From assembly GCF_003334335.1 (NCBI RefSeq), contig NZ_QOWQ01000044.1: a stretch of DNA of 35,113 nt; one strand, 5' to 3'. A program made the position numbers and the translations under genes. The first letter of the stretch is position 1. Every line of letters begins with the position of its first letter. The DNA is from Escherichia coli. Lineage in GTDB: Bacteria; Pseudomonadota; Gammaproteobacteria; Enterobacterales; Enterobacteriaceae. This document shows, one piece after another, positions 20,295 to 35,113 of the stretch. A model generated the notes under the pieces. It was not told the DNA's origin. It searched no databases and saw nothing but the letters and a program-made list of their open reading frames with translations.

Positions 20295-20470
20295 GTAGGC
20301 CTGATAAGACGCGTCAGCGTCGCATCAGGCATCTGAGCATGGTGTCGGATGCGACGCGAGCGCCTTATCCGACCTACGGTTCAGGTCCGTAGGCATGATA
20401 AAACGCGTCAGCGTCGCATCAGGCATCGGCACACAGTGCCGGATGCACCGCGCGACGCATCCGACAATAA
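20295..20470. repeat. REP/BIME array between codB and prpE
   Basis: Four REP palindromes in alternating orientation (gtaggcctgataagacgcgtcagcgtcgcatcaggc...); the last abuts the prpE stop. Confidence 0.88.
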
Positions 20471-25091: not shown

Positions 25092-25370
25092 GTTGTCGGA
25101 TGCGACGCTATGCGTCTTATCCGACCTACAGTTCAGTTCACCCCGTAGGCCTGATAAGTCGCGTCAGCGGCGCATCAGGCATCGGTTGTCGGATGCGACG
25201 CTATGCGTCTTATCCGACCTACAGTTCAGTGCACCCCGTAGGCCTGATAAGTCACGTCAGCGGCGCATCAGGCATCGGTTGTCGGATGCGACGCCATCCG
25301 TCTTATCCGACCTACAGTTCAGTGCACCTCGTAGGCCTGATAAGTCGCGTCAGCGACGCATCAGGCATCG
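25092..25370. repeat. 3 x 93-bp tandem BIME array in the prpB-prpC intercistronic region
   Basis: Unit starts at 25092, 25185 and 25278 (period 93 bp); each unit is a pair of inverted REPs; a degenerate partial fourth unit follows to about 25385. Confidence 0.92.
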
Positions 25371-29321: not shown

Positions 29322-29567
29322 CTACGTAATCAACCTGATTTGCCGAATCACGGCCATCGGCGATGATAGCCCCCGTAATGCGTGGTCCTTATTTCCGATA
29401 AGTTTACTTGAGTCTTTAGCTTCCCATTTCAGCCCACTCTCCCCTGTGTGGGCTTTTTTCATTGGTCTGCCCCATCCTGAATAGCCAAACAATGGCAATG
29501 TTCCACGTTGCAGGGATGATAATAAGGGGATCTGATTCAGAAGAGTTTTGAAAAGTTGGACCGCCAT
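29322..29567 (-). CDS. yahM: small protein of unknown function
   Basis: ORF track gives 91 aa from 29597; Met at 29567 gives 81 aa, matching the yahM length I recall; no recognisable domain, so coding status is the weakest in the window. Confidence 0.55.
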   Translation of the reverse strand: MAVQLFKTLLNQIPLLSSLQRGTLPLFGYSGWGRPMKKAHTGESGLKWEAKDSSKLIGNKDHALRGLSSPMAVIRQIRLIT

Positions 29568-29979
29568 CGAGGCCTCGAACCCCGTACCATACAACAATCC
29601 TGGTTGTCGTCTGCTCTTCCTGATGAGCTAATGGCGGTTTTTGATATGAGCCTTACAGCATATTTTCTGTCAGGCTTGAGTGCGATGCGTAAGATACAGA
29701 AAAGACCCCACACAAACATGATGGAATTATGATTTTTTTCATATGAATGTCAACCAACACATTCACAAAACATCTGCATGAGATCATTTTTTATACACCG
29801 CATGGCTGCGAAACCACTACTGGTGCTTTTTTAAGCGAAGTGTCGCCGATCACAACAAAATATCGGCGAAAAAAGAGATGGAATGCCAGTTGGCATACAG
29901 ATATACAGATGAAATGATTACCTGCATTGCGATTCACTCTCAGGTGGAATAACAACTTGCAGGTGGAACCCTTTCTGAA

Positions 29980-30795
29980 CTAAAGAGTGTAGCGGATTTT
30001 AACGTGCTTATTTACAGGATAATATCTGTCACCTAATTCCTGCACTCTATTAGATATCCATTCATTTAATCGCGCATCATCTCTGTATGTTTTTACGTCC
30101 AGAACAGAGAGCAATAACATCACCAGTGATTCAGGAAAAACAGGGTAGATATTTTTTAAGTGTAATAATAATCCATGCGCAAGCGCCTGCTTAATGGGCG
30201 CGTCTGTCTCCGGAATAGACGACATTTCGCGAAGCCATTTTTCCACATGCATACACTCTTTCCCTTTAGGGAAAATTCTCAGCAAAGGCATATGGTATTC
30301 AAGAAGAATACATTTGCAATCTGTTCGCACTGAATCGATAAACTGCACTAATTTCTTAAGCCCGGTAAAGCGTCCAGCCTGCACGTTTGCTTTAATATCA
30401 AGAAACGCATCATCCTGGTCATATACCCAAACTGTCCCTTTTTGATTTTCAAGTATGTGAAAAACAAACTTAACCGGGTGATCAGGGTAATCCATCCAGT
30501 CATAAAATCCAGGGAAATCATTAAACTGCACATTTATGGTGAGTGCGTTATCGTCTGACCACTCACAGTCTCGTACGGCAGCCATGAGATGAATGAGTTT
30601 GTCGTCATCGACTAAATCATCACGACAATCATAAGGATAATCATAATATTGTTTAATCAAAACCTTGAATATATCGACACAGGAAACCAGGGAGCTTTTG
30701 ATATCCTCTGGTAACTGATTGTTTTTAACCGTATTAAGTATGCTTTGTTGCGTATATGGCATCAAATTATTGTGCGGAGCTTTTAATGATATCAT
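29980..30795 (-). CDS. yahL: protein of unknown function
   Basis: 271-aa ORF in a visibly AT-rich stretch; no motif I recognise; acidic and Cys-containing N-terminal half. Confidence 0.8.
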   Translation of the reverse strand: MISLKAPHNNLMPYTQQSILNTVKNNQLPEDIKSSLVSCVDIFKVLIKQYYDYPYDCRDDLVDDDKLIHLMAAVRDCEWSDDNALTINVQFNDFPGFYDWMDYPDHPVKFVFHILENQKGTVWVYDQDDAFLDIKANVQAGRFTGLKKLVQFIDSVRTDCKCILLEYHMPLLRIFPKGKECMHVEKWLREMSSIPETDAPIKQALAHGLLLHLKNIYPVFPESLVMLLLSVLDVKTYRDDARLNEWISNRVQELGDRYYPVNKHVKIRYTL

Positions 30796-30962
30796 CGCGA
30801 TCTCTCTTAAATAAAAATAAACGTCGCAGATAATAAAGCTCTGATTAAACCAGGCACTATCAGAAATCGCTCATAACTAACGTGTGAAGTATTGTGTACT
30901 GGAGGGCGTTAATTTAACAATTTAAATTTACGTTATAGGTTTTACTGCTACTTTGATATTAT

Positions 30963-31000
30963 TTCGCTCTCCTTAACTAAAAAGTTAAGTGGAGAGCGAA
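30963..31000. other. 38-bp near-perfect palindrome between yahK and yahL
   Basis: ttcgctctcc ttaac taaaaa gttaa gt ggagagcgaa: 10-bp outer stem plus 5-bp inner stem; 38 bp beyond the yahK stop; no adjacent U-tract, so not a canonical intrinsic terminator. Confidence 0.7.
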
Positions 31001-31037
31001 GTTAATATGTTAAACCACAGGGTATTTATTAATTTTT

Positions 31038-32087
31038 TCAGTCTGTTAGTGTGCGATTATCGATAACAAAACGATATTTCACATCACCGCGCAGCATTCG
31101 CTCATAGGCTTCATTAATTTGATCGGCCCGAATCATCTCTATATCAGCCACGATGCCATGTTCGGCGCAAAAATCGAGCATCTCCTGAGTTTCTGGAATG
31201 CCGCCAATCATAGAACCGGCTATCGCACGGCGTTTCATGATCAGGTTGAAAACTTCCGGCGATTTATGCGGTGTCGCAGGCGCACCAACCAGCGTCATGG
31301 TGCCATCACGCTTCAGCAAGGTGGTAAAATCGTCGAGATTATGTGGCGCAGCTACTGTATTCAAAATGAAATCGAAACTCTTCAGATGAGCCGCCATCTC
31401 ATCGGCATTGCGTGAGTTAACAACTTCATCGGCCCCCAGGGCTTTTGCCGCTTCGCGTTTTGCCTCAGAAGTGGTAAATGCCACCACATGTGCCCCCATC
31501 GCGTGGGCCAGCTTAATCCCCATATGTCCCAGACCGCCGATGCCGACCACGCCCACTTTTTTACCCGGCCCGGCCTGCCAGTGACGTAGCGGCGAATACG
31601 TGGTGATCCCTGCACACAACAAAGGAGCCACCGCCGCCAGCTGCTCTTGCGGGTGACGAATACGCAGAACATATCGCTCATGAACGACGATCTGTTGTGA
31701 GTAGCCGCCCAGAGTATGGCCCGGTTCGTCCGGCGTCGGCGAGTTATAGGTGCCGGTCATGTGATCACAGTAGTTTTCCAACCCGTCTTCACACTCTTCG
31801 CAATGTTTACAACTGTCGACAATGCAGCCGACACCGACCAGATCGCCCGGCGCATATTTTTCTACCTGATCACCAACGGCTACCACACGCCCCACAATTT
31901 CATGACCCGGCACGCAGGGGTAAACCGTCCCCGCCCACTCGGAACGGACCTGGTGGAGATCGGAATGGCAAACGCCACAGTAAGCGATTTCGATTTTGAC
32001 ATCATTCGGTCCCGGTTCACGCCGGGTGATATCCATCGGTTCAAGTGGTTGTTTAGCGGAATATGCACCAACAGCTTTGATCTTCAT
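31038..32087 (-). CDS. yahK: NADPH-dependent aldehyde reductase (zinc-type alcohol dehydrogenase)
   Basis: 349-aa ORF with the zinc-ADH signature GHEIVGRV, structural-zinc cysteine cluster and GxGGLG cofactor loop. Confidence 0.94.
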   Translation of the reverse strand: MKIKAVGAYSAKQPLEPMDITRREPGPNDVKIEIAYCGVCHSDLHQVRSEWAGTVYPCVPGHEIVGRVVAVGDQVEKYAPGDLVGVGCIVDSCKHCEECEDGLENYCDHMTGTYNSPTPDEPGHTLGGYSQQIVVHERYVLRIRHPQEQLAAVAPLLCAGITTYSPLRHWQAGPGKKVGVVGIGGLGHMGIKLAHAMGAHVVAFTTSEAKREAAKALGADEVVNSRNADEMAAHLKSFDFILNTVAAPHNLDDFTTLLKRDGTMTLVGAPATPHKSPEVFNLIMKRRAIAGSMIGGIPETQEMLDFCAEHGIVADIEMIRADQINEAYERMLRGDVKYRFVIDNRTLTD

Positions 32088-32463
32088 TGTGTTTACTCCT
32101 GATTAGCTATGTGTATTTGGCAACGCCTGATATGTCATCGCGGCAAAACGCGTCCATTGAATATAGCCAATATTTAAACCACCCGATCCAGCCCCAACAT
32201 GCCGCGAGCCTGAATGAAACAGAGCAGCAACGTTCCCCATAAGGCGAGCGCCTGTAAGTGTGATATTTGCTATCTGTAAAAGACTAAAATCGGCAAAACT
32301 GATGATCTTTTCACGTAGACAAATAGTTATCTACACAACGTCAATAAGGGCATATTCCTCAAAGATAATGTCCATTTCTGCCGACACACTCATATTCAGA
32401 TTGCCCCACTCCCTGGGGCTTAAATCTCTTACTATTCACCGTTGCAGGCGTTTCAAATGCGCA

Positions 32464-34855: not shown

Positions 34856-35113
34856 TGCCTGATGCGCTACGCTTATCAGGCCTACAATTCTCGCGCCACT
34901 CGTAGGCCGGATAAGGCGTTCACGCCGCATCCGGCAATGGTGACAAATGCCTGATGCGCTACGCTTATCAGGCCTACAGATTCTCGCGCCACTCGTAGGC
35001 CGGATAAGGCGTCCACGCCGCATCCGGCAGTGGTGGCAAATGCCTGATGCGCTACGCTTATCAGGCCTACAGATTCTTGCGCCATTCGTAGGCCGGATAA
35101 GGCGTTCACGCCG
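34856..35113. repeat. Tandem BIME array (92-93-bp period) upstream of yahI
   Basis: Unit starts at 34856, 34948 and 35041; array is truncated by the window end. Confidence 0.9.

Follow-up and report, generated by a model that had tools for sequence, protein, structure and literature searches.

The 38-bp palindrome located downstream of yahK in Escherichia coli folds as a stable RNA hairpin which marks the published 3' end of the yahK mRNA. It occupies positions 30963 to 31000 of the window, i.e. the whole 35,113-nt stretch of contig NZ_QOWQ01000044.1 that was analysed, and is carried as a single copy per genome. Taken together, its structure, its mapped ends and the Rho-sensitive region reported just beyond make it probable that this stem-loop constitutes the exonuclease-blocking 3' end of a Rho-terminated mRNA, a class of elements described by Dar & Sorek 2018 (PMC6061677).

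On the + strand, the palindrome reads TTCGCTCTCC-TTAACT-AAAA-AGTTAA-GT-GGAGAGCGAA. The outer arms (30963-30972 and 30991-31000) are 10 nt each and 100% complementary according to the repeat finder, which also reported an overlapping inner pair. As a whole, the sequence and the repeat finder agree with the original prediction of a 38-bp palindrome with a 10-bp outer stem; the inner stem, given there as 5 bp, is a minor error, the fold showing 6 bp (30973-30978 with 30983-30988). The loop corresponds to positions 30979-30982 (4 nt) and the bulge to positions 30989-30990 (2 nt). At the RNA level, the 3'-UTR stem-loop of yahK (- strand) is thus written UUCGCUCUCC-AC-UUAACU-UUUU-AGUUAA-GGAGAGCGAA, with 16 bp in total, a 2-nt bulge and a UUUU loop. 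A weak continuation of the dyad into the A/T-rich flanks (about 30955-30961 with 31002-31008) was seen both in a 111-nt fold and in the fold of the strain M70 sequence, and the 36-38-bp palindrome reaches about 54 bp when these weak A·T pairs are added.

The gene upstream, yahK (31038-32087, - strand), codes for an NADPH-dependent aldehyde reductase, as indicated by the list of open reading frames and the RefSeq annotation of identical DNA. Its TGA stop codon (31040-31038) is followed by a 37-nt 3'-UTR spacer (31001-31037, - strand), which places the start of the palindrome 38 bp past the stop, as anticipated. Concerning the downstream gene, yahL (29980-30795, - strand; same sources), it is AT-rich and has the same orientation as yahK, its start being about 170 bp from the palindrome. 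It lies outside the element and defines what read-through would enter. On the other side of yahK, between yahJ and yahK, RefSeq annotates a 75-bp hypothetical-protein fragment (about 32174-32248, - strand), incomplete and with its N-terminus missing.

The predicted free energy is -20.4 kcal/mol for the yahK-sense (-) strand (z = -5.9) and -20.0 kcal/mol for the + strand (z = -6.7), and none of 200 dinucleotide shuffles folded as well. The folding-energy calculation proposed along with the original prediction therefore gives a stable hairpin, at about -20 kcal/mol and a z-score of about -6. Four loci in the whole 35-kb window carry inverted repeats with perfectly complementary arms of 10 bp or more around a spacer of 3-20 nt, vs. 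a mean of 0.95 per simulated sequence in first-order Markov simulations. Because such repeats are rare in the window, and given the extra 6-bp inner helix, the yahK palindrome is clearly non-random. The three other inverted repeats of this kind map at positions 8714-8748, 8948-8975 and 14786-14811. The first of these contains the lac operator O1 (AATTGTGAGCGGATAACAATT), which indicates that the window spans the lac region.

The presence of a lac operator among these repeats bears on a reading at the DNA level, in which the palindrome would be a protein-binding dyad (an operator or a nucleoid-protein site) regulating yahL or acting as a roadblock. Its dyad symmetry is near-perfect and, as the lac operator region belongs to the same set of perfect inverted repeats in the window, symmetry alone does not argue against protein binding. 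However, no binding reports were found in the literature, nearby genomic-SELEX peaks (RNA polymerase) map inside yahL only, and the palindrome lies about 170 bp upstream of the yahL start and is kept where yahL is missing (see below). Contiguous 16-bp arms with a 4-nt loop, as found here, are a usual feature of RNA hairpins, not of operators. Since the mapped RNA ends are also explained without any protein, a binding site appears extremely improbable. The original prediction had proposed a protein-binding dyad or an RNA-processing structure rather than an intrinsic terminator: its RNA-processing and non-intrinsic parts are supported, whereas no support was found for the dyad, the element lying in a 3' UTR and not at a promoter.

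As for the sequence following the hairpin, the 8 nt past the stem are AUAAUAUC in the yahK-sense orientation, with 3 U and an A as first residue, and GUUAAUAU on the other strand. A terminator-pattern scan of positions 30600-31300 returned zero sites, and the U run of canonical terminators (at least 5 U in 8 nt, starting 0-2 nt after a G+C-rich stem) is missing from the yahK palindrome. The absence of a T-run on either strand, noticed from the start, is thereby confirmed.

Published RNA 3' ends were then placed on the hairpin. Window positions were converted to MG1655 coordinates through a K-12-like locus (L001, strain 3FA), which has the same local coordinates as MG1655, the sum of window position and genome position being 374971; the stem thus extends from 343971 to 344008 in MG1655. 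As a check of this conversion, the yahL start of strain 3FA (344176) agrees with the "-163 from yahL" entry given for position 344013. Two curated Term-seq 3' ends, both on the + strand of MG1655 and both classified as "orphan", are listed in Supplementary file 1 of Adams et al. 2021 (eLife 10:e62438, PMC7815308): 344013 in the LB OD 2.0 sheet (1132 reads) and 344011 in the M63 OD 0.4 sheet (745 reads). Neither of them appears in the LB OD 0.4 sheet. The former corresponds to window position 30958, 5 nt past the stem, the RNA ending in ...GGAGAGCGAA-AUAAU, and the latter to position 30960, 3 nt past the stem, with an RNA ending in ...GGAGAGCGAA-AUA. The printed Term-seq sequences span -50 to +10 around each end, and their register was checked on the thrL row. 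These steady-state ends (30958-30960, - strand) coincide with the hairpin, so that the 3'-end mapping suggested as a check does not refute the prediction. No opposite-strand 3' ends near the palindrome were found in the tables of Adams et al. 2021 (PMC7815308), and the TERMITe tables hold no entry for the locus. The Rho and intrinsic-terminator score columns of Supplementary file 1 concern the LB OD 0.4 sheet only, and 344011 and 344013 consequently fall outside them.

Ends located just after a stable hairpin, itself shortly after a stop codon, are also what a canonical intrinsic terminator displays, and the hairpin might release or arrest RNA polymerase despite its poor U-tract, perhaps inefficiently and with Rho as backup. 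The tail AUAAUAU, with 3-4 U, can pair with the upstream AUAUUAA, and mixed or transitional cases with a reduced U content are explicitly allowed by Dar & Sorek 2018 (PMC6061677). Nevertheless, the yahK hairpin differs from canonical terminators by the lack of a 7-8 nt U-tract and of an A-tract/U-tract pair, and by a stem with just 7 G-C pairs out of 16. The U-poor tail starting with an A and the empty consensus scan also speak against this explanation. Release at intrinsic terminators typically occurs about 7-9 nt from the stem, whereas the yahK ends, at 3-5 nt, are nearer than is usual for release. Adding to this the bicyclomycin-sensitive region found immediately downstream, albeit in a coarse map with low counts, intrinsic termination at this hairpin is considered unlikely.

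This bicyclomycin-sensitive region is a Rho termination region (+ strand of MG1655, "orphan") reported in Supplementary file 2 of Adams et al. 2021 (PMC7815308), with a best position at 344049, based on coarse 800-nt windows and low counts. Position 344049 corresponds to window position 30922, 41 nt downstream of the stem. The reads upstream and downstream of it were 32 and 24 without bicyclomycin vs. 83 and 225 with bicyclomycin, giving a Rho score of 3.61 (p = 1.8e-5), again from low counts in 800-nt windows (PMC7815308). Underlying the Rho map is a DirectRNA-seq comparison of untreated and bicyclomycin-treated cells grown in LB to OD 0.5, and the Term-seq ends were recorded under other conditions, LB at OD 2.0 and M63. 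According to the authors themselves (PMC7815308), the positions of Rho regions are coarse, and true termination sites lie farther from them than processed ends do. In addition, the downstream rise induced by bicyclomycin could stem from a de-repressed yahL promoter and not from yahK read-through.

The first 78 nt past the stem (30885-30962, - strand), which contain position 344049, represent a candidate zone for Rho loading and termination, as suggested by their composition. They are 72% A/U, with 15 C vs. 7 G, and the C/G ratio falls to about 1 further on, which is weak evidence. At a larger scale, the GC content goes from 0.51-0.60 in yahK to 0.33-0.42 downstream. Such a drop is typical of foreign or acquired DNA silenced by Rho and H-NS.

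Dar & Sorek 2018 (PMC6061677) showed that Rho-dependent transcripts of E. coli end immediately after stable stem-loops without U-rich tails, that C is mildly enriched over G downstream of these stem-loops, and that PNPase and RNase II account for most of the trimming of the loose tails. The yahK 3'-UTR stem-loop resembles this class in its stability, in the steady-state 3' end located immediately after it, in the absence of a U-rich tail, in the excess of C over G downstream and, going by the coarse Rho map, in a bicyclomycin-sensitive region just beyond. It differs from the class by an unusually long and nearly perfect stem (16 bp), the likeness itself resting on sequence and published maps. 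On these grounds, the palindrome would act as RNA, the 16-bp stem-loop folding 38 nt past the stop codon upon transcription of yahK. For lack of a U-tract, RNA polymerase would not be released at the hairpin and would continue into the A/T-rich, C-over-G spacer, where Rho would terminate transcription diffusely, some tens to hundreds of nucleotides further on. The loose tail would then be degraded by 3'-5' exonucleases, mainly PNPase and RNase II, until they are stopped by the stem-loop, leaving the yahK mRNA with a defined and protected end 3-5 nt beyond the stem. The mapped 3' ends would accordingly result from trimming rather than from release at the hairpin, and the hairpin itself would raise the stability of the yahK mRNA. 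The net effect would be a stable yahK message, separated from the horizontally acquired yahL/yahM DNA downstream. A less conventional proposal, in which the palindrome would do more than passively halt exonucleases, is given little credence: it might serve as a U-tract-free, hairpin-dependent terminator or pause site acting jointly with Rho at the foreign-DNA boundary, or else as a protein or cruciform site at the DNA level.

The distribution of the palindrome was analysed at several levels. No further copy was found in the window with 3 mismatches allowed. Of the 5426 complete E. coli genomes, 5089 were matched by a 54-nt query around the palindrome, the median number of places per genome being one. 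The second "place" found in some strains arises from the perfect-palindrome variant, which also matches itself on the complementary strand; this self-match was reproduced locally for strain M70 (48 bits, minus strand), and none was obtained for the K-12-like and SF-166 types. The repetition elsewhere in the genome that the original prediction had suggested searching for is therefore absent. Among the metagenome contigs with the core pattern, all the matches listed (at least 120) have the same flanks, i.e. they correspond to the same yahK locus. Plasmid matches are restricted to F-prime episomes or mislabelled chromosomal (chromosome-sized) records, and the phage collection gave zero matches. 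One viral-contig match was discarded as a chance occurrence, as only its inner arms correspond and its outer arms are not complementary.

REP/BIME sequences, which are also stabilisers of mRNA 3' ends, share with the yahK element the nature of an extragenic palindrome able to block 3' exonucleases downstream of a gene. In contrast to REPs, present in hundreds of copies, the yahK element is single-copy and of unrelated sequence. A REP/BIME or a dispersed MITE is thus ruled out by the single copy per genome and the absence of any Rfam or REP model match. A permissive Rfam search of positions 30500-31400 (E-value cut-off of 10) gave spurious miRNA-type matches far below the gathering scores. Over the whole window, the only matches above the Rfam gathering score are five to naRNA4 (RF02564), three on the + strand (3-80, 34905-34974 and 34998-35067) and two on the - strand (20298-20374 and 25148-25219). 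They are REP-type extragenic palindromes, unrelated to the yahK hairpin.

Three natural variants were distinguished, their counts being approximate since they were assigned by identity band among the 5089 matching E. coli genomes. The K-12 type (about 3952 genomes) has the right arm AGTTAAGTGGAGAGCGAA, a 2-nt bulge and a folding energy of -20.4 kcal/mol. The M70 type (about 411 genomes), with the right arm AGTTAAGGAGAGCGAA, has perfect 16-bp arms and reaches -25.8 kcal/mol, while the SF-166 type (about 726 genomes), with the right arm AGTTAAGTGGAGCGAA, contains a small internal loop and folds at -18.7 kcal/mol. What distinguishes the three variants is in each case a 2-nt indel where the two helices join, and one flank substitution was also seen in the M70 type, at window position 31001, which lengthens the helix. 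A 66-nt fold of the M70 type gives -30.2 kcal/mol (z = -10.7), and some B2-like strains have 36 nt of perfect palindrome. No compensatory double substitutions were seen among the E. coli variants, and in a sample of E. coli sequences constrained by the search pattern the palindrome is not clearly better conserved than its flanks.

The gene yahL lies within a clean 835-bp presence/absence segment (29967-30801), made of its coding sequence and a few bases. The B2-like strain M70 lacks exactly this segment, its flanks aligning at 96% and 91% identity, and yet it has kept the palindrome, which is about 160 bp from the segment edge (30801/30802). As the hairpin is kept with and without yahL, and as all three variants fold, the element belongs to the yahK 3' UTR and not to yahL. 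In the same strain, yahM is annotated as frameshifted.

In E. coli SCAID WND1-2022 (positions 1501-1560 of the locus recovered from this strain, about window position 30984), an IS1 is inserted exactly in the palindrome loop. IS1 and a truncated hyxB stand in place of the yahK side, pointing to a rearrangement mediated by IS1. A protein or cruciform site at the DNA level would fit an IS1 insertion in the loop. The palindrome could also be a relic or a target of mobile DNA (a MITE, an IS end, an insertion scar or a cruciform-prone hotspot) with no selected role, the exonuclease block being incidental; this single IS1 case and the position of the element in an AT-rich zone, next to a gene presence/absence polymorphism, would agree with such an origin. 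Against it, E. coli carries one copy only, the phage collection has none, the plasmid matches come down to F-prime or mislabelled chromosomal DNA, the metagenome matches listed all derive from the same locus, the boundary of the yahL indel does not fall at the palindrome, and neither flanking direct repeats nor an Rfam or REP family match was found. A mobile-DNA origin is consequently regarded as highly improbable.

Outside Escherichia, the YahK of Enterobacter sp. BIGb0383 is 88% identical and the E. coli palindrome is absent downstream of its gene. Instead, an unrelated hairpin AAGGCCAGCACC...GGTGATGGCCTT, followed by the T-rich TATTTATT, is present (positions 2592-2640 of locus L007; -21.8 kcal/mol for a 58-nt fold), which looks more like a canonical terminator. 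This unrelated T-tailed hairpin indicates that the formation of the yahK 3' end is handled differently between lineages. The E. coli palindrome would thus be lineage-specific as far as this comparison goes, the nearest non-Escherichia orthologue among the matches listed lacking the element. A scan of genome contigs with YahK gave, among the matches listed, one Enterobacter and many Beta- and Gammaproteobacteria, with no Escherichia. A survey of downstream hairpins in the 80 YahK loci listed was uninformative, as high-GC genomes fold everywhere and as it was biased towards long hairpins. With regard to the protein itself, relatives outside the Enterobacteriaceae with 78-84% identity occur, among the matches listed, in Betaproteobacteria and Pseudomonas (Candidimonas, Pollutimonas, Pseudomonas veronii and others), the sole enterobacterial locus listed being the 88% identical one. 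On these matches, the unusually flat identity profile of YahK may reflect horizontal spread.

Further downstream, between yahL and yahM, ARAGORN detects a tRNA-like structure (tRNA-Ser, anticodon GGA) at positions 29557-29637 (- strand; about 345334-345414 in MG1655), which overlaps the annotated yahM start. No tRNA was called at these positions by Rfam at the gathering score. A published Term-seq 3' end (345390, window position 29581) falls inside the T-arm-like GGTTCGAGG segment of this structure, and it is marked as lying within a significant Rho termination region in Supplementary file 3 of Adams et al. 2021 (PMC7815308). The tRNA-like structure may be a degenerate tRNA remnant, e.g. an old integration site of the yahL/yahM DNA.

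No paper discussing the yahK palindrome individually was found in the literature search, and concerning a role in sRNA or Hfq regulation, yahK is unmentioned in the supplements of a RIL-seq sRNA-prediction paper and of an Hfq CLASH paper. Public tables already list both the yahK 3' end and the Rho-sensitive region next to it, the element is of an ordinary, described class, and no open question hinges on it. The locus also offers a clean textbook example, in which a U-tract-free stem-loop can be set against a 3' end and a Rho-sensitive region that are both publicly available, at a point where a core gene meets AT-rich acquired DNA. The gene yahK is widely used in metabolic engineering, and knowledge of its stem-loop could help in transferring the gene or its terminator region. 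The value of the finding is mainly one of annotation: the 3' UTR of yahK is now delimited, at about 80 nt, and closes with an end that probably stabilises the mRNA.
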